A stretch of DNA of 43,831 bases from a virus (lineage: Duplodnaviria > Heunggongvirae > Uroviricota > Caudoviricetes): IMG/VR virus record IMGVR_UViG_2711768019_000013. One strand, given 5' to 3'. The notes beneath the pieces were generated by a model. The model searched no databases, was not told where the DNA came from, and saw only the letters and a list, made by a program, of their open reading frames with translations. Below are positions 3,276 through 34,036 of this stretch, piece by piece (position 1 is the first letter of the stretch; every line of letters begins with the position of its first letter). A program made the translations under genes and the position numbers.

Positions 3276-3928
3276 TCAGCGACCAATCACCACAACCTGA
3301 CCACCATCCCCTTCGTCTGCCGTGCTGATCTCCTGAGAAACCACACGTGACCCCACGCGCATTTCCCCGTACNNNNNNNNNNNNNNNNNNNNNNNNNNNN
3401 NNNNNNNNNNNNNNNNNNNNNNNNNNNNNNNNNNNNNNNNNNNNNNNNNNNNNNNNNNNNNNNNNNNNNNNNNNNNNNNNNNNNNNNNNNNNNNNNNNNN
3501 NNNNNNNNNNNNNNNNNNNNNNNNNNNNNNNNNNNNNNNNNNNNNNNNNNNNNNNNNNNNNNNNNNNNNNNNNNNNNNNNNNNNNNNNNNNNNNNNNNNN
3601 NNNNNNNNNNNNNNNNNNNNNNCACACCGCCACTTTTGGCACCCGCCAGACGCGGAACGATGTGGATCACGGCACCATTTGCCAGCGGTTCATTAAGACG
3701 GGCAGATAATTCATTTTCGCCTGCATCACGCCCGGCAATGCGCACCTGATACCAGCCGTCGCTCAGTTTCTGACGAAATGCCGGGAGCTGTGTGGCCAGT
3801 GCCCGGATGGCTTCGGCCCCCGTTTTCACACGAAGGTCGATGCGGCGGCCAAATCGCTGCAAATCCCCGTAAAGGCAGATGCGTGCCATGCCCGGTGACG
3901 CCAGAGGGAGTGTGTGCGTCGCTGCCAT
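3276..3928 (-). CDS. I: Tail assembly protein I (lambda gpI-like); interrupted by gap 3373-3622
   Basis: N-terminus MAATHTLPLASPGMARICLYGDLQRFGRRIDLRVKTGAEAIRALATQLPAFRQKL...; minus-strand translation of 3276-3372 gives ...YGEMRVGSRVVSQEISTADEGDGGQVVVIGR then TGA (3276-3278), the gpI C-terminus. Track end 3287 is a frame artefact of the gap. Confidence 0.8.
3373..3622. other. Assembly gap (250 N) inside I
   Basis: Run of n characters. Confidence 0.99.
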
Positions 3929-21525: not shown

Positions 21526-21610
21526 CGGAGGTGTTGCTGGTAAAGTTAGGTATTGGATCAATGAGTGAGTCAACATAATATTAAACTCACAATTATAAAT
21601 CAGCCATATA

Positions 21611-23068
21611 TTAGGAGCGCCAAAAAAAACCTGAAAACAATATAATAACAGGATAAATTTCAAGGCGACCAAGAATCATAGCTATGCACATTAAATATTT
21701 TGCAATGTCATTAAGCACTCCGAATGACGATGCAGTAGCCCCAAAACCTAATCCCATATTATTAATACATGCAGCCACTGTTGCAAATGATGTAAGAAAA
21801 TCATATCCCATACCATTTAACACCAGTATAAAAAACACCGTGAAGAGAGTATAAAGAAAAAAGAAACTCCATACAGACCTCATTACACGATCTGTAACTA
21901 TCTTCCCTCCTACATTTACACTCAACAACGCTCTGGGATGAGAAAGCTGATTTATCTCGTGTTTGCTTTGTTTGAAAAGTATAAGAAATCGAAGTGACTT
22001 AATTCCACCACAGGTTGAACCTATACATCCCCCAAAGAAACTTGACAACAGCAAAAACACTATCGTGTGCGTGGGCCAGTTTGCATAATCCTGCGTAGCT
22101 AAACCATTATCAGTGAGCATGGAGCTGGCAAGAAAAAACGAATGAATAAAACTTCCATGCAAGTCATACATACCTATATGCCAGACCTGGAAAGAGGTAA
22201 CAATGATCACCCCTAAGGCTATTAACAGAAAGAAACGAAGTTCAATATCTCTGATTAAAGGTTTTATCGTTTTTCTGCTAATAACAATATACCAAAGAGT
22301 GAAGTTGAAAGCCGATAGCAGGGAAAAAGAACCAGCCACCAGCTCAACCAAATAGTTATTAAAATATCCGATACTCTCGCTATGAGTTGAGAAACCACCA
22401 AGCGAAACTGTGGAAATCCCGTGACAAATAGCATCAAACAAAGGCATTCCTGCAAGTCTATAACAGACAATACAAGCAATACCTAATAAAGAATAAGTTA
22501 TCCACAGTGTCCGTGACGTATCGGCCAGGCGGGGAGTGAGTTTGTCATCCTTAAATGGCCCCGGCATTTCTGACTGATAAAGCTTTGCACCACCAATACC
22601 CAATAATGGCAATACTGCAACCGCCAGAACAATAACTCCTAAACCACCTATAAAATTTAACTGTGACCGATAGTACAAATATGCCCGAGGTAATGAACTA
22701 ACATCATCAATTACAGTTGCTCCTGTTGTTGTTATTCCAGAAACCCCTTCAAACAGAGCATCAATGAACGTTAAATTAAGTTCTGAGTCAATCCATAAAG
22801 GGAATGCACTAATAACAGAAAACAAAATCCAAAACATTACAATTATAATAAACCCATCACGGGTACGTAATTGAATGCCAGATTTCTTAGTTGTATACCA
22901 CGCTCCGCCACCAATGCAAAAAAATATAACGAAAGTTATAAAGAAAACGAACAGGCTTTTTTCTTTATAAAACAATGCTACAACCATTGGTGGCAACATT
23001 GAAAGACTATAGAGCCAAACCAGGAACCCACACATATGAGTAACAACTCTTACATGAGATGTATTCAT
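21611..23068 (-). CDS. trkG: Potassium uptake protein TrkG (TrkH family), start at MNTSHVRV
   Basis: Multi-pass membrane protein with repeated pore-loop-like GGxG segments; I recognise it as the Rac-encoded trkG; markedly AT-rich compared with flanking phage genes. Confidence 0.85.
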   Translation of the reverse strand: MNTSHVRVVTHMCGFLVWLYSLSMLPPMVVALFYKEKSLFVFFITFVIFFCIGGGAWYTTKKSGIQLRTRDGFIIIVMFWILFSVISAFPLWIDSELNLTFIDALFEGVSGITTTGATVIDDVSSLPRAYLYYRSQLNFIGGLGVIVLAVAVLPLLGIGGAKLYQSEMPGPFKDDKLTPRLADTSRTLWITYSLLGIACIVCYRLAGMPLFDAICHGISTVSLGGFSTHSESIGYFNNYLVELVAGSFSLLSAFNFTLWYIVISRKTIKPLIRDIELRFFLLIALGVIIVTSFQVWHIGMYDLHGSFIHSFFLASSMLTDNGLATQDYANWPTHTIVFLLLSSFFGGCIGSTCGGIKSLRFLILFKQSKHEINQLSHPRALLSVNVGGKIVTDRVMRSVWSFFFLYTLFTVFFILVLNGMGYDFLTSFATVAACINNMGLGFGATASSFGVLNDIAKYLMCIAMILGRLEIYPVIILFSGFFWRS

Positions 23069-23205
23069 ATCTAAATATTCTTTCAATTATAACCACCTTG
23101 CTGCAATATTATGATTATACTGTATAAAATTTAACTCCTCTTAGATCTTACTTCACTGTTCCTTATGAAACAATCATCAAAATGAATCATATTGTAGTTA
23201 AGATT

Positions 23206-23670
23206 TTACTTTAAACACTGCTCGGTTATGTATTGCTGAGCACCTTCAAGTTGGGCCTGCATCATTACCAGTCGTTCCCGGAGGGTGAAATAATCCCGTT
23301 CAGCGGTGTCTGCCAGTCGGGGGGAGGCTGCATTATCCACGCCGGAGGCGGTGGTGGCTTCACGCACTGACTGACAGACTGCTTTGATGTGCAACCGACG
23401 ACGACCAGCGGCAACATCATCACGCAGAGCATCATTTTCAGCTTTCGCATCAGCTAACTCCTTCGTGTATTTTGCATCGAGCGCAGCAACATCACGCTGA
23501 CGCATCTGCATGTCAGTAATTGCCGCGTTCGCCAGCTTCAGTTCTCTGGCATTTTTGTCGCGCTGGGCTTTGTAGGTAATGGCGTTATCACGGTAATGAT
23601 TAACAGCCCATGACAGGCAGACGATGATGCAGATAACCAGAGCGGAGATAATCGCGGTTACTCTGTTCAT
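23206..23670 (-). CDS. Rz: i-spanin Rz
   Basis: [23 protein letters not shown]... N-terminal transmembrane segment then coiled coil; ATG overlaps the endolysin stop (ATGA). Confidence 0.8.
23265..23450 (-). CDS. Rz1: o-spanin Rz1 (lipoprotein) embedded in Rz
   Basis: [23 protein letters not shown]... lipobox VVGC, proline-rich ([18 protein letters not shown]); encoded in the +1 frame inside Rz. Confidence 0.8.
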
Positions 23671-24164
23671 TGCTGACCCCACAAACAGATTTCACGCTCA
23701 ATCTCACGACGAGTCATGAGACCTTTCCATTGCTTACCGCCAGCATATGTCCAGCGACGTAGCTGATCACATGCGCCTTTGATATCGCCCTGGTTTATTT
23801 TGCGAAGAAGCGTCGATGTTCTGAAATTGCCAGCGCCCACGTTGTAAACGAACGAGTAAAGAGCGCCGCGCGTTGTTTCCGGTATATCGACTTTGATGTA
23901 CGGGTTAATTTGTCTGGCGACAGTGGCAAGGTCTTTATTCAAGAGTGTTTTGCATTCTGCTTTGGTATACGTTTTACCGAGCATGATGTCTTTTCCTGTA
24001 TGCCCGTGACATACAGTCCATACACCAACAATATCTTTGTATGGTATGTAGCTGACACCTTCCAGACCATCGTTACCACTTGGGCCAGTGATTAACACTG
24101 ATGCTATAGCAATTGCTCCGCCACCAATAGCAGCAGCAACGACTTTTCGTAATGATGGAGGCAT
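23667..24164 (-). CDS. SAR endolysin (phage 21 R-like lysozyme)
   Basis: N-terminal signal-anchor-release segment [18 protein letters not shown] then a lysozyme domain (…[13 protein letters not shown]…); near-identical to my memory of R21. Confidence 0.85.
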
Positions 24165-24379
24165 TATTCACCTCTCGCAGCCTTGCGCTTATCTTCTTTA
24201 ATCTTGAAATAAAGGTTTGTCAGGTACGTCAGCAGGCCAAATACCAGACTACCCAGCACACCGATTGCAGCCCACTGTGACGGAGTTACTCTATCGAGCA
24301 ACTGTAAAAACCAGTAGCCAGCACTGCCTGCGGAGGTGCCGTAGGCAATGCCTGTTGAAATTTTGTCCATGGATTTCAT
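24164..24379 (-). CDS. Class II pinholin (S21-like) with dual-start motif MKSMDK
   Basis: [71 protein letters not shown]; two transmembrane segments; starts at M1 (24379) and M4 (24370); stop overlaps the endolysin ATG. Confidence 0.85.
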
Positions 24380-24630
24380 AGCCTCACCTCCGCACGGAAC
24401 GGATGGCATAGTTATTATGTGTAGGCTTTCAGACACATCAATCAGAGCCTTAATTGATATATATGCTGGAGACGATGCAATATAAAAAGCTCGCCGTAGC
24501 GAGCTAATAAAATGTATTTCTCTGATATTATGTTTATTTGTATTAGCTCAGACTTGACATCACAGGTTTCGTATATAGAACATCATCAAATCTGTCAGTT
24601 TGCTATGAATGAGATATAGTAATTGAAGAG

Positions 24631-25026
24631 CTAACCTCGCATGTCAAAGCCAGATTTCTGAAAATCTCTGTAGACTTCCGGATTGTTGAAGGCCGGAAAT
24701 TTGGCTTTATGAGCTGCGGACTTTATCGCTTCGCAATAGGCTTTATCACCGTTACTGGTAGATATTTTTAACGCCGTGCCATCCTGAGAGAATTCCATAT
24801 GCAACCTGCATTTTTTCCCTTTCCAGTTATGCGGCTCATCAAGTTTGGCATTAATTGCAGCTCTGATTCCCCGCGCTTGCGCCCCCCATTCATCCTGATC
24901 ATCCCAGCGTCCTGAACTGCAACTACCTGTAGCAGTAGTTTTGTGGCAATCTGAAGGGTGTAAAGGTGTGCATCCCGCAACAAAACCGACCCAAAAAGTC
25001 AACATAACGATTTTCTTTAATCCCAC
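24631..25026 (-). CDS. Lipoprotein with divergent TolA domain III-like C-terminus (GTG start)
   Basis: Signal peptide MGLKKIVMLTFWVGFVAGC (lipobox VAGC); C-terminal WKGKKCRLHMEFSQDGTALKISTSNGDKAYCEAIKSAAHKAKFPAFNNPEVYRDFQKSGFDMRG parallels the neighbouring paralogue; GAGGAG 6 nt before the GTG. Confidence 0.6.
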   Translation of the reverse strand: MGLKKIVMLTFWVGFVAGCTPLHPSDCHKTTATGSCSSGRWDDQDEWGAQARGIRAAINAKLDEPHNWKGKKCRLHMEFSQDGTALKISTSNGDKAYCEAIKSAAHKAKFPAFNNPEVYRDFQKSGFDMRG

Positions 25027-25176
25027 TTCTTGCTCCTCAATCCATTAAAATCTCAGCAATAGTAGTTGTTACGTCCGCCACTGGCTCAGAGCTGACTATC
25101 CGCTAAATTTAGCTCAGTGCCGTAGCTGTGTCAGAACAAACCTAAGCCGAAACCGTTTATTACAAAACAATAAATA

Positions 25177-25605
25177 TCAGGGTTTAAAATCCAGCACCCC
25201 ATTTTGAAATACTTTATATACTTCCGGCGAAGGGGGGGCAGGTATATCAGCATTCTTTATCGCATTCATCGCTTCACGACATAAATCGAGGTCTCCACTT
25301 TCTCTTTTAACCTCCAGTAGAAGGCCATTCGGGGCCATATGCATTCTCAGTGTACACTCTTTTCCTGAATACTTACTCGCATCCCCGAACTGTTTTTCGA
25401 TGGCGCTCTTGATTTGATGGGCATACAGACGGATATCCTCACTAACATCAGAAGTACGTTCAGATGAACTCACATACTGTGTCTCTATTGCTTTATCGGA
25501 GTAATATGATGTACGGTCATGATAATTTGTCGATACAGCATCAGTGCACCCGATAATAATCCCACTAATAATCAACGTAAGAATTGATGCGCTACGAAAA
25601 CCCAT
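25177..25605 (-). CDS. Lipoprotein with TolA domain III-like C-terminus
   Basis: Signal peptide with lipobox IIGC; YAHQIKSAIEKQFGDASKYSGKECTLRMHMAPNGLLLEVKRESGDLDLCREAMNAIKNADIPAPPSPEVYKVFQNGVLDFKP closely matches the E. coli TolA C-terminus as I remember it (…AGQIKSAIESKFYDASSYAGKTCTLRIKLAPDGMLLDIKPEGGDPALCQAALAAAKLAKIPKPPSQAVYEVFKNAPLDFKP). Confidence 0.7.
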   Translation of the reverse strand: MGFRSASILTLIISGIIIGCTDAVSTNYHDRTSYYSDKAIETQYVSSSERTSDVSEDIRLYAHQIKSAIEKQFGDASKYSGKECTLRMHMAPNGLLLEVKRESGDLDLCREAMNAIKNADIPAPPSPEVYKVFQNGVLDFKP

Positions 25606-26649: not shown

Positions 26650-27192
26650 TCAAGCCATTTTCTCAGCAAATGATTCACGCATGGGAATATATAGGGCATA
26701 CTCAGCAACAGCTAACCAATTAGCAATCCGTTTTTCGCATGTGCTAAAACACCACTCTGGGTGTGCATCATTTAGCAATTCAGCCATTTTGCGCTTAGTC
26801 ATCCCCCGCCCTTCATAGCGTTGCCGGAGAATGCAAATCAATCCTGGATGCTCTGCCAGCACCTCACTTATGACTCGATCAATACATAACGCCTCTGCAT
26901 CAGTACAATGCGCCAGCCAGCTCTTTTGCTTGCCGTTGATCATCTCTCGCAAAAACGCTTCCAGCTCAGCTTTCTCTATTCCCGCTTTTTTCATTCTGCG
27001 CAGGGCTTCATTAATGGCTGTTTTCGTCAGTTTTTTGGATGCCAACAACTGATTGAACATATTCCCTGACCTGCCACCGCCAATATACGACCAGCGCCCC
27101 CACATACGTAGTTTTCCCTGAATCCAGACACTTTCCAGCGTGGTGAGGCGAAGGTGTTCTCCGCTTTTTCCTGTATTCGTTGGGTAAATCAT
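26650..27192 (-). CDS. Late-gene antitermination protein Q-like
   Basis: 180 aa immediately upstream of terminators and the lysis cassette; RMWGRW motif resembles the phage Q-family ERWGAW motif as I recall it; ATGA overlap with the upstream gene. Confidence 0.55.
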   Translation of the reverse strand: MIYPTNTGKSGEHLRLTTLESVWIQGKLRMWGRWSYIGGGRSGNMFNQLLASKKLTKTAINEALRRMKKAGIEKAELEAFLREMINGKQKSWLAHCTDAEALCIDRVISEVLAEHPGLICILRQRYEGRGMTKRKMAELLNDAHPEWCFSTCEKRIANWLAVAEYALYIPMRESFAEKMA

Positions 27193-27479
27193 AAATGACC
27201 TTTCTTTCTCCAGATTTCTTGTGTGCGAAAAACCCCTTCAGCATGCATCAGGCGCAATTCTTCTTTGGTGTAATCGCTGGTTTTTACCCGCCCGTCGATT
27301 AGATCGTGGCATGAGCTACAGGCTATCGCCGCCTGCATATCATGTGGTTTTGTCGCTGTTCCGCACGTCCCCGCCAGCCTGTAATGCGCCAGCACAGAGG
27401 TTTCGGGATTGTGATTGCAGTAGCCAGGGATTCTGATCTGGCACATCTGGCCTTTAGCCGCTTTACGTAAATTCACCAT
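27189..27479 (-). CDS. YbcO-like (DUF1364) Cys-rich nin-region protein, putative nuclease
   Basis: 96 aa with CQIRIPGYC...CSSCHDLIDGR; position in the nin region upstream of Q. Confidence 0.5.
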   Translation of the reverse strand: MVNLRKAAKGQMCQIRIPGYCNHNPETSVLAHYRLAGTCGTATKPHDMQAAIACSSCHDLIDGRVKTSDYTKEELRLMHAEGVFRTQEIWRKKGHL

Positions 27480-28078
27480 TACGCAAACTCCAGTAGTTGT
27501 GCGGCCACATTTTCAACTTCCTCCTGAGAGGAGAATTTACGGAACAGAATCCAGTTCCACAGCACATTCAGTACAGATTTATAAACCTGCTGAAACTCGA
27601 CTTCGTCCATATTCGCAAAAGCGATGGATTTTGCCCGACGCCCACGGCTACCGTCCGGATAAATATGCTCGGTGTAAAATCCGGCCTGAATGGTTACCCA
27701 CTCGCGGAAAGCCTCAAACGACTTTAGCAACGCCGTATCCCGGGTTCTACGAGTCGCAACGGTGTTAAGGTATTGCTCTGCGGCATCACTCAGGGCTGGC
27801 GTGTGTTCCCGACCAACTGATTCGCACAGGTAATCAACGAAACCAGACAGCAGTTCTCGTTCGCGAGGCGTGATCGCCCCACCGACCGGAGTCCAGTAAT
27901 CGAATCCCAGTTGCAGGAGTTTGAAAAAACGCTTGTGGAATGCGTAGTTACGCACACGCTTAAAGTCTGCGTGTATCCACTCACCTATTTTGATTTGATG
28001 CAGAAAATCGCAACTCTCCGGCGTCGCCGGGAGAAGTAAACCAGAAGAGGTTTGTTTGACCAGTTGTATATGCGCCAT
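27479..28078 (-). CDS. YbcN-like (DUF1367) nin-region protein
   Basis: 199 aa, MAHIQLVKQTSSGLLLPATPESCDFLHQIKIGEWIHADFKRVRNYAFHKRFFKLL...; synteny with the DLP12-type ybcN-ybcO-Q arrangement. Confidence 0.5.
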   Translation of the reverse strand: MAHIQLVKQTSSGLLLPATPESCDFLHQIKIGEWIHADFKRVRNYAFHKRFFKLLQLGFDYWTPVGGAITPRERELLSGFVDYLCESVGREHTPALSDAAEQYLNTVATRRTRDTALLKSFEAFREWVTIQAGFYTEHIYPDGSRGRRAKSIAFANMDEVEFQQVYKSVLNVLWNWILFRKFSSQEEVENVAAQLLEFA

Positions 28079-28358
28079 TTCTCAATCTCTCGATGGCGCA
28101 GCGCAGCAGATGCCAGTTGTTCAGGCTGACGAATAAAGTATAAATAAACTGGCTATGGTGTAAAGCCCCACATAGCATGAACAAACACTACATATCAAAT
28201 AGCTGGTACAAGGATAGAAATACGACACTTATTATTAAAAACGATTAGATAAATTACATTTTAATGTTATGCAAAAGTTCTTTTTTATCATAACATTTCA
28301 ATAAAAGCATTACAGATGCAATCATCCCGTCATCATCAATTATTTAAGGTGGTTAAAC

Positions 28359-28445
28359 ATGGAAAATAACAAGTTCGCACATCTCGCTCCTTTTTTATCC
28401 GTAATCCTTTTCGCTTGTTGTTTTATATGGGCATTATTTTTATAA
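28359..28445 (+). CDS. Small hydrophobic peptide (28 aa), candidate membrane peptide
   Basis: AAGGTGG Shine-Dalgarno 7 nt before ATG 28359; my translation MENNKFAHLAPFLSVILFACCFIWALFL then TAA 28443-28445; single predicted transmembrane helix; AT-rich island. Confidence 0.3.
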   Translation: MENNKFAHLAPFLSVILFACCFIWALFL

Positions 28446-28853
28446 AGTAGCCACATGATAAGTTGCTGGAATCATATTTCCCACTCAAGTCATTAACATT
28501 TGATAAGATATATCTAAAAGGACGCCTTTACATTATTTATGCGTATATAATTTATTTATATACACAGTAAAGGTATCCTGGGAAAATATTTATCGTTAAA
28601 AAATACATCATAAATAATTAAGCTGAAATTTCAGAACACAACTAATACACACAATAAGGTTCAGTAACAGTAATCTATGTGGACTACATCGAGATTTTTT
28701 GATTAAACTTTAATAACTTATTCCTAACACACAGAATGCATAAACTAAAAGTAAAACAAATAGTTATACGAAAAACAACCATATTTATTCTATCTTCTCC
28801 TCTAATCAACATATCAATTATGTGTTTCATAACAGCTTGACATAACCCTCCAA

Positions 28854-28876
28854 AAGATGCATTTTTAATGCATGTT
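28854..28876 (+). promoter_or_regulatory. NsrR-like operator (11-1-11 inverted repeat) upstream of the YeaR-like gene
   Basis: AAGATGCATTT-T-TAATGCATGTT; the left half is identical to the NsrR half-site as I remember the consensus (AAGATGCATTT), the right half matches in 9 of 11 positions; TTGACA at 28837-28842. Confidence 0.5.
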
Positions 28877-28891
28877 TTGGAGGAGGTGGTT

Positions 28892-29230
28892 ATGACACAC
28901 AAGAGAATTCCTAAAGATTGGGTAATCAAACGCTCAACTCCGTTCTTCACAAAAGAGAACGTACCTTCAGCGTTATTAACACATCATAATACAGCAGCAG
29001 GTGTTTTTGGGCAGTTGTGCGTAATGGAAGGCACTGTAACATATTATGGTTTTACTGATGAGAATGCTACTGAACCGGAGATAAAAGTAGTCATTAATGC
29101 TGGCGCTTTTGCAACAAGCCCACCACAATACTGGCACCGTGTTGAACTAAGCGATGATGCTCAGTTTAATATTAACTTTTGGGTCGCTCCAGACTTTTCG
29201 GGCGAAAAAGTCTATAGCACCAAAAAATAG
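28892..29230 (+). CDS. YeaR-like DUF1971 protein (112 aa)
   Basis: GGAGGAGGTGG Shine-Dalgarno before ATG 28892; KRSTPFFTKENVP...CVMEGTVTYYGFTDENATEPE...FNINFWVAPD follows the YeaR pattern as I remember it. Confidence 0.6.
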   Translation: MTHKRIPKDWVIKRSTPFFTKENVPSALLTHHNTAAGVFGQLCVMEGTVTYYGFTDENATEPEIKVVINAGAFATSPPQYWHRVELSDDAQFNINFWVAPDFSGEKVYSTKK

Positions 29231-29257
29231 ATGATCATATTAAAAATGCTTTAACAG

Positions 29258-29296
29258 TCAGACCCGGCAGGGCTATCCCCGACGGGTCTCATTTTT
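29258..29296 (+). terminator. Rho-independent terminator after the YeaR-like gene
   Basis: GC-rich imperfect hairpin gacccggcaggg...ccccgacgggtc followed by TCATTTTTG. Confidence 0.55.
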
Positions 29297-29850
29297 GTAA
29301 ATATATTGGTTCTACATTGACAGGAGACTTCAACCATAAGAAGTAATCTGAATACTTGAGCAATAAATTTACTTAAGATTAATGAGCGCACCTTGCCGGA
29401 CAAAGATAAACCAAGGTAACACCTTTTTTCTAGCCAGTATGTAATCAATCAGAAAGCCGCTCCATAAGAACAACAGCAAGACAATAAATTGCCATTACAG
29501 CCGCAATAGCCAGCGCACATTTGAGAACCAGCACGACAACCCCCTGTATTAGACGCACACCAGTCCTGATAAATATGAGGCTGTCTCGTCAGTGATTCAA
29601 TACAACTATTGGGTATAGTTTCTGTGATTTTATTCTGTAGAAATGGAACACAACAACCAGTCACCACCAGCACTTCCTTAAATGCTCTAAGTCAGAAACA
29701 AGCCAACATTTTAGTCCGCTTTGAGCGATCTGCAGACATTGCTAGCAGCCTTCTGTGTGAATTCTCAGGGAGCAGGTCGGCATAGCATCACGTTGAGGCT
29801 CTTACCCTACTTGTTCACACCAACCCTAACTCCACAGACTGATTCATAAA

Positions 29851-30852
29851 TTAGTAATCTGCGTGTTTCGCACTTTTCAGAAATGCTTTCATATTTTCAT
29901 TAGGTCGCTCAATTTCGAAGTTACTTCCATATAACTCTTGTAATTTTGGCCATAACTTACTTAATAACCCTCTCCTGCGATAAAATGGATGTATCCAAAC
30001 GGTAGATAGGTACGGAGAATTTGCATTTGAATTGTTTATTGTGACCAGCCCAACTAAACATTGTCGATAACCACTATTATCCATTGATTGTATTTCTTCG
30101 ACGAATGGATACGCGATTACATCAGTCCAACCATGATCGGTTGTATCCCATTGCATTCCGTCATGACATTCCTTCGACTGATAGCGGCGTAAAGCTACAC
30201 ACGCGAGCTTTTGCCAATCTGGAGAATTAATTGTGATCTCTTCATCGTATGACGCGCCTATTGGAGCGGGTATTGGTCTGATTAATCCAGCATGGCATTC
30301 ATCATAGAACTTCATGTTTCCCTCAGAAACGTTGTGTACGTTGGGTTGCTCCATGTGTGCGCCATTCAAAAATAGCTCTGATAGTAGTGTATCTACACTG
30401 TAATCTTTATTGATTATTGTCGGCTTAGAGTTTTTCTTATTAAGGCCGCGAGTAACGATTTTTTGATCAATGTTAACAACATGGAATAATCCGTCGGGGA
30501 GGCTAGCGAACCACGATGGGGCATCGGACCAGAATAGCATGCCTTTTGTACTTCTTAAGAGTTTAATTAAGTTAATACAAGCTTCTTCACTAGTCTTGCC
30601 GTTGATGCGAAGTATGTTAGGACTAAAGTAATATTCATCCATATCAGGGAATGCAGCTTCGCAAAACTCCTGTACATAATTTAGCACCTGGATTCTACAG
30701 AGATCATCATAGCTGGTAATAACTAAGGGGGTATCTTCATTACTATTATGATTATCAATAATGCAATCTATAGCGAGACTTACTGCTTTGCGTATCACTT
30801 CAGTTGAATCTAACGACTCTAAAAATTTTGTCTTTCGTGTGCGAATATCCAT
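29851..30852 (-). CDS. Hypothetical protein (333 aa), second gene of an AT-rich two-gene operon; C-terminal region weakly GNAT acetyltransferase-like
   Basis: Start ATG 30852 lies 15 nt after the ORF A stop; C-terminal ...CLVGLVTINNSNANSPYLSTVWIHPFYRRRGLLSKLWPKL... resembles GNAT motif A (compare RimI FQRRGLG); N-terminal 200 aa unrecognised; low GC. Confidence 0.55.
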   Translation of the reverse strand: MDIRTRKTKFLESLDSTEVIRKAVSLAIDCIIDNHNSNEDTPLVITSYDDLCRIQVLNYVQEFCEAAFPDMDEYYFSPNILRINGKTSEEACINLIKLLRSTKGMLFWSDAPSWFASLPDGLFHVVNIDQKIVTRGLNKKNSKPTIINKDYSVDTLLSELFLNGAHMEQPNVHNVSEGNMKFYDECHAGLIRPIPAPIGASYDEEITINSPDWQKLACVALRRYQSKECHDGMQWDTTDHGWTDVIAYPFVEEIQSMDNSGYRQCLVGLVTINNSNANSPYLSTVWIHPFYRRRGLLSKLWPKLQELYGSNFEIERPNENMKAFLKSAKHADY

Positions 30853-30867
30853 GTATGACCTGCGCTA

Positions 30868-31890
30868 TTAAAATTCATGAATGAACGGTTTGTCATCTGG
30901 TTGCAAAATGGTGGTTTTATTCGTTGCTACATTTAAACTGTTGTAGAGCATAATTGCCAGGTTCGATGCATTTTCAATCAGCGTTTCAAGATCCTGGTCT
31001 GTAATCACTACGAGGTTCCCTTCTTTATCCTTTCCACCACGATGCACTAAGTGATTTCGATTGAGGGTTGCCAATTCAATAGCTTCTATCGGACAGTCTT
31101 TTTGTACTTTTATATCGAATGTAGCTTCATAGCGGTCGATTACCTTTTTAGTGCTATGCCAGCTTGCACTGATCAAGTGTTCCTTGATTGACCTGATTAG
31201 CTCTCCCCTAATTTTCTCGATGGGTTCACCCTTGAAAGGCAACGCAGCAATATCTTTGCTTACTTTAAATTCAGTCTTACCTTTTTCTATACAATTGGCT
31301 ATGTAGACATCATCTTTCTCTATAGAATTAATGAATAGCTCAACATAAAGCGTTTCCAAAGCTGTAATAACATTCGTGTAGAGCAAACTAAGCAAGTGGT
31401 TTTTTTGCTGTTGTTCAGTTTTATCTTTTGCAAGTTTTTTTATTTTATCGATATTATCAATGAATTTTAAATACGGATTACCGGAAGACGTTACAGCGTC
31501 GTAGATATCATCATCGTACCAATCATCTATATTATTTGAGTTTCCAGACCAGTCAAAACATTGTGTTTGTAATTCATCTACTAATTCCTCAATATACTCA
31601 GATTTAACATATTGACCGAAGATGGATTGTAGTTCTTCGCTCGCATCATACGGCCCGCCATATATGTAAGCATAGCCACCTTCTCTACTTTCATACGGAC
31701 AAGCATTTGCCGGATCTTCAAAGTTTTCAAAGAACCAGTTTTTCATTACTTCGAGTTGATCTTTTTTGCTTATGTATTTTAAAGATTTTAGTGGAACTTT
31801 CTTTCCATTAACCTCGAAAACAATTTTCACGATGTAACGCTCCCTTGTATCAATTGCGCAACTATTATACCACAGCGAAATACAGGGCAT
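30868..31890 (-). CDS. Hypothetical protein (340 aa), first gene of the AT-rich two-gene operon; C-terminal R-x4-H (HEPN-like) motif
   Basis: Strong AAGGAGG Shine-Dalgarno 6 nt before ATG 31890 (MPCISLWYNSC...); C-terminal ...ATLNRNHLVHRGG... fits the Rx4-6H pattern; no family recognised by eye; low GC. Confidence 0.55.
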   Translation of the reverse strand: MPCISLWYNSCAIDTRERYIVKIVFEVNGKKVPLKSLKYISKKDQLEVMKNWFFENFEDPANACPYESREGGYAYIYGGPYDASEELQSIFGQYVKSEYIEELVDELQTQCFDWSGNSNNIDDWYDDDIYDAVTSSGNPYLKFIDNIDKIKKLAKDKTEQQQKNHLLSLLYTNVITALETLYVELFINSIEKDDVYIANCIEKGKTEFKVSKDIAALPFKGEPIEKIRGELIRSIKEHLISASWHSTKKVIDRYEATFDIKVQKDCPIEAIELATLNRNHLVHRGGKDKEGNLVVITDQDLETLIENASNLAIMLYNSLNVATNKTTILQPDDKPFIHEF

Positions 31891-31928
31891 AACCTGCCTC
31901 CTTAAACTAACATACCATGAGCCAGCAA

Positions 31929-31954
31929 TGTCCGCTATTGGCACAAAGCGGACA
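31929..31954. promoter_or_regulatory. Perfect 8-10-8 inverted repeat (TGTCCGCT-N10-AGCGGACA) upstream of ORF A; candidate operator
   Basis: Plus-strand tgtccgct attggcacaa agcggaca at 31929-31954, about 40 nt upstream of the ORF A start on the minus strand; not followed by a U-run, so not a terminator. Confidence 0.4.
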
Positions 31955-32028
31955 ACCACGCTAGCTCTCCCCTGTGCCAGAAAAATGTCAATTTACATAT
32001 GAACTAATGCTCTTTGATCTAGTAACGT

Positions 32029-33244: not shown

Positions 33245-34036
33245 TTACTTCTCAATTCCTGGCTGGACGACATTCGGACGCCAGCTCTCCCAGTTAAAAT
33301 TCACCCATCGCCNNNNNNNNNNNNNNNNNNNNNNNNNNNNNNNNNNNNNNNNNNNNNNNNNNNNNNNNNNNNNNNNNNNNNNNNNNNNNNNNNNNNNNNN
33401 NNNNNNNNNNNNNNNNNNNNNNNNNNNNNNNNNNNNNNNNNNNNNNNNNNNNNNNNNNNNNNNNNNNNNNNNNNNNNNNNNNNNNNNNNNNNNNNNNNNN
33501 NNNNNNNNNNNNNNNNNNNNNNNNNNNNNNNNNNNNNNNNNNNNNNNNNNNNNNNNNNNNNNNNNNNNNNNNNNNNNNNNNNNNNNNNNNNNNNNNNNNN
33601 NNNNNNNNNNNNNNNNNNNNNNNNNNNNNNNNNNNNNNNNNNNNNNNNNNNNNNNNNNNNNNNNNNNNNNNNNGATAGCTGCCGCTAAGTGGTTCTTCCC
33701 GGTACCAGGTTTTCCGCTGAACGCAAAATTTGTACACCCGGTCATCAGTTCATCAGCGATGGATTTCGCCTGACTCAACGCGTATCGCTGCGCTTCGTTC
33801 TGCACCTGGTAATTCGAAAACGAGCATTTGCGGTGCAATGGCTGGATGCCAGAGCGATTCAGAATTTTTTCCACCCGCAACTGACGATTCTGACGGTTGA
33901 TCTCCTCACAACGTTTCTGGCCTTCGGAAAGTTGCCACTCGCGCCACTCCGCTACCGTCTTGAATGGCGCGGTTACATGTGACGGGGCCAGTCTGCGGAT
34001 ACGTTCAAGAACGTCGCCTGTCGCAATATTTTTCAT
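33245..34036 (-). CDS. DnaC-like replication protein (AAA+ helicase loader, lambda P analogue); interrupted by gap 33313-33673
   Basis: Walker [17 protein letters not shown] just before the gap; N-terminal ...[40 protein letters not shown]... typical of DnaC-family N-domains; follows the O-like gene. Confidence 0.65.
33313..33673. other. Assembly gap (361 N) inside the DnaC-like gene
   Basis: Run of n characters. Confidence 0.99.

Follow-up and report, generated by a model that had tools for sequence, protein, structure and literature searches.

A Rac-type prophage of Escherichia coli carries an STM1808-type DUF1971 gene behind a predicted NsrR operator

The IMG/VR virus record IMGVR_UViG_2711768019_000013, a stretch of 43,831 nt referred to below as the window, is essentially an entire Rac-type lambdoid prophage of Escherichia coli integrated beside ttcA. 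Its genes run from the tail, head and terminase functions through trkG, the lysis genes, a Q-like gene (DUF1133), YbcO and DUF1367 to the ydaU/ydaV replication genes and, beyond these, to the immunity region, sieB, kilR, recET, xis and int. In the part that concerns us here, the late and early-right genes of the phage all lie on the minus strand, and a DUF1971 gene is the lone plus-strand gene among them. It is located between the DUF1367/YbcO/Q-like genes and a variable accessory slot, and is convergent with the replication/nin/Q-like unit. Upstream of it lie the -35 hexamer of a predicted sigma-70 promoter of its own, an inverted repeat resembling the binding sites of the nitric oxide (NO)-responsive repressor NsrR, and a Shine-Dalgarno sequence, and an intrinsic terminator follows it (Table 1). 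A previous sequence-only reading of this DNA had proposed a YeaR-like cargo gene wired into the nitrosative stress response of its host, and the -35, the inverted repeat, the Shine-Dalgarno sequence, the coding sequence and the terminator were all retrieved where it had placed them.

The product of this gene belongs to the cupin-like DUF1971 family, as had been anticipated (Pfam PF09313, 92 bits for a cut-off of 23.1), and corresponds to RefSeq WP_000149055.1, which is named "DUF1971 domain-containing protein" or, in some records, "TehB family protein". The latter label was considered and rejected. TehB is an S-adenosylmethionine-dependent tellurite methyltransferase, and the match to the NCBIfam model NF008992 reaches 49 bits for a cut-off of 303 and is limited to the first ~100 of its 289 positions, the 112-residue protein having no methyltransferase domain. 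Sequence comparison places the protein in a tight DUF1971 clade with representatives in Salmonella, Kluyvera, Citrobacter, Klebsiella, Raoultella, Vibrio, Aliivibrio and Shewanella, to which it is 73-82% identical. It shares 79% identity with a Salmonella enterica protein and 41% with YeaR of E. coli K-12. The gene of the Salmonella protein is positioned directly after dsbB, in the order ycgB-fadR-nhaB-dsbB, the orthologue itself and, further on, minCDE. As dsbB is STM1807 (PMC4143323), the Salmonella orthologue directly downstream is STM1808. By sequence, the window gene is an orthologue of STM1808 and not of yeaR. The description as YeaR-like thus holds for the DUF1971 family and fails for orthology, YeaR orthology being rejected on the 41% identity, the lack of a yoaG-like open reading frame downstream, a different promoter and the lack of NarL heptamers; nor is the promoter a copy of that of yeaR-yoaG.

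Two reports (PMC7527575 and PMC6529577, both citing Karlinsey et al. 2012) present STM1808 as a member of the NsrR regulon that aids the growth of Salmonella in systemic mouse infection. Among known structures, PDB entry 3DL3, a close orthologue, matches the window protein over its full length (residues 1-111, 201 bits) and 3BB6, which is YeaR, matches at 89 bits. Furthermore, two His residues, H32 and H82, are invariant in 13 aligned sequences, including the window protein and YeaR. STM1808 is reportedly a zinc protein, and both residues are said to be required for zinc binding and for NO resistance. Two prophage alleles of the coding sequence are separated by 8 synonymous changes and 1 non-synonymous change, a ratio of non-synonymous to synonymous rates (dN/dS) of 0.03, which indicates that the protein is maintained while it resides in phages.

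Table 1. Features of the DUF1971 cassette and of its surroundings in the window
Feature	Position	Strand	Description	Basis
-35 hexamer	28837-28842	+	TTGACA, perfect consensus	direct sequence
Putative NsrR operator	28854-28876		AAGATGCATTTTTAATGCATGTT = AAGATGCATTT-T-TAATGCATGTT, 11-1-11 inverted repeat	matrix and conservation
Probable -10	28860-28865	+	CATTTT, at operator positions 7-12, 17 bp after the -35	inferred from geometry
Shine-Dalgarno sequence	28879-28889	+	GGAGGAGGTGG; GGAG core kept in orthologues	direct sequence
DUF1971 coding sequence	28892-29230 (ATG 28892, TAG 29228-29230)	+	112 aa	Pfam
Intrinsic terminator	29260-29297	+	hairpin AGACCCG...CGGGTCT (29260-29289), then CATTTTTG	RNA fold
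Q-like antiterminator gene	26650-27192	-	minus-strand transcription unit	
DUF1367 gene	27479-28078		one flank of the DUF1971 gene	
AT-rich stretch	28079-28836		760 bp, 30.5% GC, without a credible open reading frame	
Promoter-like element	28164-28137	-	TTTACA-16-TATACT, 10/12	
Open reading frame	29445-29558	-	considered as Hok/Gef toxin	
First accessory gene	29851-30852	-	333 aa; other flank of the DUF1971 gene, variable prophage slot	
Second accessory gene	30868-31959	-	363 aa; other flank of the DUF1971 gene, variable prophage slot	
Masked runs of N	1821-2169, 3373-3622, 33313-33673		960 bases in total; tail-fibre, tail-assembly and replication regions	

The inverted repeat was scored with a symmetric matrix derived from 26 distinct 11-1-11 NsrR sites, that is, 52 known half-sites, as listed by Mehta et al. 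(2015, Table 4, PMC5320621). It reaches 28.15 bits and is second only to ytfE among the known E. coli sites, whose scores are in-sample for this same matrix (ytfE 31.7, hcp 26.1, tehA 25.5, yeaR 24.0, ygbA 22.5 and hmp 20.3 bits). The next best site in the window scores 13.5 bits. The probability of such a score per position is 3.6e-11 for a uniform composition and 1.2e-9 for the local AT-rich composition, which amounts to 2e-4 to 6e-3 sites expected by chance per 5 Mb, and 0 of 2000 shuffles of the intergenic region attain it. Expressed as ln P, the score is about -23 to -24 for a published cut-off of -14.28, values that are only roughly comparable because they come from different matrices. 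The sequence-only reading had recognized the left half as the NsrR consensus and counted 9 of 11 matches in the right half, and both counts stand up to the matrix. The preferred base is indeed present at 21 of the 23 positions, the exceptions being positions 13 and 21, and the two arms are complementary at 9 of 11 positions. The left half, AAGATGCATTT, is the top-scoring half-site, occurring twice at ytfE and once at hmp, and the full window site differs from that of ytfE only at the spacer and at positions 13 and 21.

Generic promoter and terminator scans called neither element of the cassette, and for this reason we relied on cross-species alignment and RNA folding. The terminator hairpin, ~30 nt past the stop codon, has a folding energy of -19.4 kcal/mol (z -2.15 relative to shuffled sequences), and was missed by the scan because its loop is longer than the scan permits.

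The promoters of orthologous genes provide a further argument for the operator. We surveyed 80 loci of the STM1808-type DUF1971 clade from species-representative genomes, 52 of them enterobacterial (14 genera) and 28 from other bacteria, by retaining the best matrix site within 150 bp before the ATG. A site scoring 20 bits or more was found in 51 of the 52 enterobacterial loci, with a median of 29.3 bits and a centre 27-39 bp before the ATG, to be compared with a 99th percentile of 10.6 bits for random windows of the same loci. No second site exceeds 14.4 bits in any of these 52 loci. The sole exception is that of Leclercia adecarboxylata (L010, about 744-766), where deletion of the spacer base leaves an 11-0-11 arrangement scoring 12 bits. 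Outside the enterobacteria, the operator is absent from 27 of the 28 loci (Vibrio, Aliivibrio, Shewanella and similar) and a site is present in 1, so that the association is an enterobacterial feature and not one of the DUF1971 family at large. Neptunomonas loci and a Parendozoicomonas locus do hold NsrR-like sites of 18-24 bits at some distance from the DUF1971 gene, about 1-2 kb away in the former and about 0.7 kb upstream in the latter (L067 at 1962 and 1997, L070 at 3315 and 3339, L077 at 2966 and 5069), the gene's own upstream region holding none.

In an alignment of 16 enterobacterial promoters, the only upstream blocks to survive are the -35, the operator, the Shine-Dalgarno sequence and the ATG. 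The -35 (TTGACA, TTTACA or TTGnnn) starts 17 nt before the operator in 16 of 16 promoters. In each of them the probable -10, weak in the prophage copy, would thereby coincide with operator positions 7-12, reading TATTTT, TATATT or CATATT in the orthologues after the same 17-bp spacer. The operator holds 1.67 bit of information per position, the -35 holds 0.88 bit and the flanks 0.4-0.5 bit. Furthermore, the conservation of each operator position among orthologues follows the information carried by that position in known NsrR sites (Spearman 0.67, P 4e-4), a correlation that is not fully independent since the sites were found with the same matrix. Synonymous sites are saturated between the prophage gene and every chromosomal orthologue (61-65 differences over ~69 sites, dN 0.11-0.15), and similarity at the nucleotide level to Kluyvera, Pantoea and Leclercia nevertheless extends from the left edge of the operator (28853/28854) to the stop codon. 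DNA similarity that starts at the operator edge in spite of this saturation implies a constraint on the operator as strong as that on the protein. By the extent of this shared DNA, the phage took in operator, leader and gene as one piece.

These data also bear on whether NsrR is the relevant protein at all. AT-rich intergenic DNA yields palindromes, and Rrf2 proteins share a fold, so one may ask whether the repeat is fortuitous, or is bound by a phage regulator or by IscR, the other Rrf2 protein of E. coli. Chance is excluded by the score statistics together with the conservation in 51 of 52 loci, and the positions that are conserved are precisely those that bear information in known NsrR sites. 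A regulator specific to the phage is not needed, since the site is equally present in the chromosomal copy of Salmonella, outside any phage. As to IscR, its type 1 and type 2 motifs are not known to resemble AAGATGCATTT. We regard this whole set of explanations as extremely improbable.

Other regulators were sought around the operator. The region 28701-28895 contains no NarL heptamers and no FNR box, and co-regulation by NarL or FNR as at yeaR is rejected on that ground. A Fur-box-like 19-mer (13-17 of 19 matches to GATAATGATAATCATTATC) directly precedes the -35, at about -85 relative to the ATG, in the chromosomal orthologue promoters L004-L025, which belong to Kluyvera, Leclercia, Pantoea, Enterobacter, Pseudescherichia and Buttiauxella, and its presence suggests a dual control by Fur and NsrR in this group of promoters. 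It is absent from the Citrobacter/Salmonella/Klebsiella group. In the prophage copy the element is lacking (11 of 19), and Fur co-regulation was discarded there.

NsrR of E. coli is an Rrf2-family repressor whose [4Fe-4S] holo-protein binds DNA and loses this ability upon nitrosylation of the cluster. The architecture of the prophage promoter lends itself to such a control: with its fixed 17-bp spacing from the -35, the probable -10 lies within the operator (positions 7-12), so that a bound NsrR dimer would cover both the -10 and the likely transcription start near 28872, as is classical for repressors that shut out RNA polymerase. In an unstressed lysogen, holo-NsrR seated on the operator would bar RNA polymerase from the -10. 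Exposure to NO would nitrosylate the cluster, NsrR would leave the promoter, and a monocistronic messenger RNA of roughly 420 nt would be produced from about 28872 to the end of the terminator (29290-29297). The small cupin-like protein would then accumulate beside the products of the chromosomal NsrR regulon (hmp, ytfE, hcp and yeaR). The perfect consensus -35 suggests that no activator is needed. From the promoter sequence and its conservation we infer that NsrR occupies and represses the cassette promoter and that NO releases it, a proposal we hold to be quite probable. The proposal of the sequence-only reading, a cargo gene with an NsrR-type operator and a probable response to NO, gains support in this form from the matrix score, the conservation in 51 of 52 loci and the reported NsrR regulation of STM1808. 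Whether the lysogen would gain from it is a separate matter: by analogy with STM1808, the product may protect the lysogen against nitrosative stress, for which we see about even chances.

The operator is not uniform among E. coli carriers. About 397 of them were typed with exact or near-exact 36-mers, and three main alleles emerged. The window-type allele, AAGATGCATTTTTAATGCAT(G/C)TT, scores 28.2-28.9 bits and is found in 16 genomes. A second one, AAGGTGCATTTATAATGCATGTT, scores 26.9 bits and is present in 103 genomes as well as in sequenced phages, including inducible ones. The third, AACACGCATTTATAATGCATGTT, has a damaged left arm, scores 20.0 bits and occurs in 278 genomes, so the strong operator of the window is a rare allele. 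In the common allele, operator position 5 is changed from T to C, a base unseen in the 52 known half-sites, at a cost of 7.4 bits. The window was compared with the E. coli strains 210205630, EF7-18-58 and a15 (L084, L085 and L089). A comparison over 1,277 bp shows 12 differences between the window and the common allele, of which 5-7 are gathered within 28848-28882, that is, the operator and the leader, and 1 is in the coding sequence, a clustering with a binomial P of 4e-6 to 4e-9. When the 26.9-bit allele is used as a rough outgroup, both operator-damaging changes appear derived in the common allele. One of its changes, T12 to A, creates a TATAAT at 28864-28869, but at 21 bp from the -35. The cause of these clustered changes could be a selection for weaker repression, a remodelling of the promoter through the TATAAT or a short conversion tract. 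A further change in the right arm lowers the score to 14.7 bits in strain a15, a single sampled genome. In NCTC10444 (L091, 28868-28904), the operator is intact and the T-run that separates it from the Shine-Dalgarno sequence is longer by one T.

Several observations weigh against NsrR-controlled expression of a beneficial gene, and some of them would suit a vestigial operator, which would have arrived with a gene captured from an enterobacterial chromosome and would now precede a cassette that is silent or does not respond to NO, owing to H-NS or to a crippled -10. The -10 CATTTT is weak, matching the consensus at 3 of 6 positions, A2 and T6 among them, and it is because of this 3/6 match at the 17-bp spacing that the generic scan did not call the plus-strand promoter. 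The 760 bp upstream have a GC content of 30.5%, and silencing by H-NS is conceivable whatever NsrR does. The left arm is weakened by 8 bits in 278 of the about 397 typed carriers, with strain a15 lower still, which implies that a tight NsrR control is not indispensable to the phage. In addition, no account of a prophage DUF1971/NsrR cassette was found in the searchable literature. Against decay of the site, however, the window operator retains the preferred base at nearly every position beside a perfect -35, the coding sequence is under strong purifying selection within prophages, and the 119 carriers of the two stronger alleles (16 + 103) keep operators of 27-29 bits, among which the 26.9-bit allele is that of inducible phages. 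At 20 bits, the common allele still equals the functional hmp site in score and may thus be regulated too. A merely vestigial operator is therefore, in our estimation, unlikely.

Turning to how widespread the cassette is, near-identical DNA was found in 466 of 5,426 complete E. coli genomes (~8.5%), in one copy each, while 5,292 of these genomes match other parts of the prophage. The Salmonella gene used as a query in a distant-match mode retrieves the same set, namely 457 genomes, all at 73.5-74.8% identity and in one place each. As only these same ~460 genomes are found, the species lacks a chromosomal orthologue of its own and owes the gene entirely to the prophage. The cassette occupies the same Rac-type slot after DUF1367 in the four contexts inspected (strains LD39-1, NCTC10444 and 7/2, and phage vB_EcoS-666R9), the genes beyond it being variable, and WP_000149055.1 is annotated in five further E. 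coli genomes besides LD39-1 and NCTC10444. Only 3 of 50,697 GenBank phage records contain a DUF1971 gene, all of them E. coli Rac-like phages, and two operator 23-mers searched in IMG/VR are carried by 6 and 17 viral contigs. Homologues, on the other side, are chromosomal in Salmonella and were also retrieved from genomes of 13 further enterobacterial genera and of Vibrionaceae. The gene thus displays the traits of a moron: a position between phage modules, a predicted promoter and terminator of its own, a patchy distribution and chromosomal homologues. As far as its sequence and distribution tell, it is a monocistronic cargo cassette of a Rac-type lambdoid prophage.

The position of the cassette raises the question of a use directed at the phage itself. 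With the replication genes on one side and the Q-like gene on the other, the gene is convergent with the replication/nin/Q-like unit, and its -35 is of consensus quality. A promoter released by NO might fire head-on against the early-right operon, and its main role might be to damp or time lytic development under nitrosative stress, by interference or antisense RNA, and not to supply a host-protective protein. Conversely, the terminator about 30 nt after the stop codon would confine any antisense overlap to the cargo gene, and the protein itself is under strong purifying selection. The same unit of promoter, operator and gene is chromosomal in Salmonella, outside any phage, and at the level of the promoters this arrangement of the operator is met again in the other 51 enterobacterial loci. 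We consider a phage-directed role very unlikely. A broader proposal would make the cassette a tunable NO-response module. Its operator alleles could then owe their differences to selection in the gut, favouring partial or constitutive de-repression of a phage-borne NO-tolerance gene, and/or the NO-released promoter could let the prophage sense NO stress in its host and adjust its lytic development. We judge this proposal unlikely. The allele series and the head-on orientation to the Q-like gene are the only parts of this work that could lead somewhere less expected.

We therefore keep to an NsrR-repressed, NO-released cargo gene when comparing the cassette with known systems. Its closest counterpart is STM1808: both are monocistronic, their products are of the same length within 1 aa and share the invariant H32 and H82 in addition to the 79% identity, and both have an NsrR-type operator upstream of the ATG. 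This operator scores 20.8 bits in S. enterica subsp. diarizonae (L033) and is visible in the alignment, unscored, in the subsp. enterica locus L083. On the other hand, STM1808 has a fixed place on the chromosome, between dsbB and the minCDE region, whereas the window copy rides a Rac-type prophage. Moreover, the centre of the operator lies at -27 in the window copy against -39 in Salmonella, and where the former has a consensus -35 the latter has TTGTTT. The yeaR-yoaG operon of K-12, which is repressed by NsrR and activated by NarL, also has a DUF1971 gene in first position and an 11-1-11 NsrR site in its promoter (AAATGGTATTTAAAATGCAAATT, 24.0 bits). However, YeaR is a paralogue with 41% identity, yeaR is followed by yoaG while the window gene has no second gene, and the yeaR site has its centre about 78 nt ahead of the ATG instead of 27 nt. 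By inspection, the two promoters share no nucleotide similarity, and the window promoter has neither NarL heptamers nor an FNR box. The likeness to ytfE is confined to the site described above, ytfE and hmp being chromosomal core loci with other downstream genes.

Regulation of acquired genes by a core-genome NsrR has a precedent. The available passages of Mehta et al. (2015, PMC5320621) report ten CFT073-specific NsrR targets, obtained by chromatin immunoprecipitation and sequencing in uropathogenic E. coli CFT073, and in both that set and the prophage cassette an accessory-genome promoter is bound, or predicted to be bound, by the NsrR of the core genome. The NsrR regulon is thus already documented to take in acquired genes, although these passages do not describe the targets as phage cargo or DUF1971 genes. 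CFT073 itself apparently lacks the cassette, the window 23-mer not being among the 27 predicted sites in the available part of that study.

Host-regulated morons are likewise familiar, such as the Fur-controlled stx1 or bor and lom of lambda. Like these, the prophage cassette appears to be an autonomous promoter-gene-terminator unit that would be expressible while the prophage is repressed and is predicted to answer to a host regulator; it differs in that the regulator here would be NsrR and in that the operator was evidently imported with the gene and did not evolve in the phage. NsrR-controlled DUF1971 genes are known as well, with yeaR in E. coli and STM1808, yeaR and tehB in Salmonella. 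Since both NsrR control of DUF1971 genes and host-regulated morons are already known, no new mechanism is involved. What is new is an STM1808 orthologue borne by a prophage and bringing with it its own predicted NsrR operator.

Some features of the surroundings deserve mention. Rac-type prophages have the AT-rich stretch upstream of the promoter along with the DUF1971 gene (strain E686 and phage vB_EcoS-666R9, at 89-90% identity), and it was not found beside the chromosomal orthologues compared. This stretch may be an H-NS target. An Rfam scan of 28000-29900 gave only a meaningless mir-616 match (E 0.12). Within the stretch, just upstream of the DUF1367 gene, a promoter-like element is directed into the nin/Q-like block. 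On the other side of the cassette, the first accessory gene has a sub-threshold GNAT match at its C-terminus and the second a sub-threshold match to a HEPN/RES N-terminal domain. The two were also examined as candidate defence genes, and PADLOC returned no match for either. The same slot is occupied by three different hypothetical genes in LD39-1 and by hok/gef and a KilA-N protein in strain 7/2. By comparison with the latter, a small minus-strand open reading frame downstream of the cassette was considered as a Hok/Gef toxin and dismissed, as it has no Pfam match. Other cargo-like genes, the potassium transporter gene trkG and two genes with a TolA C-terminal domain, are positioned between the Q-like gene and the lysis cassette (about 21600-25440 in the annotation coordinates of NCTC10444).

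Taken as a predicted NsrR-controlled cargo gene, the cassette has several implications for E. coli. About 8.5% of complete genomes of this species obtain an STM1808-type gene solely via a Rac-type prophage, with its operator already fitted, which would be a case of lysogenic conversion where the link to the regulator comes in together with the cargo and does not evolve later. The gene would add a strain-variable member to the predicted NsrR regulon of E. coli, one that is invisible to maps based on K-12 or CFT073. Furthermore, the three natural operator alleles would provide a ready affinity series relating the quality of NsrR half-sites to repression, and a mobile and dispensable DUF1971 copy would offer a gain-of-function handle on this family in E. 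coli.

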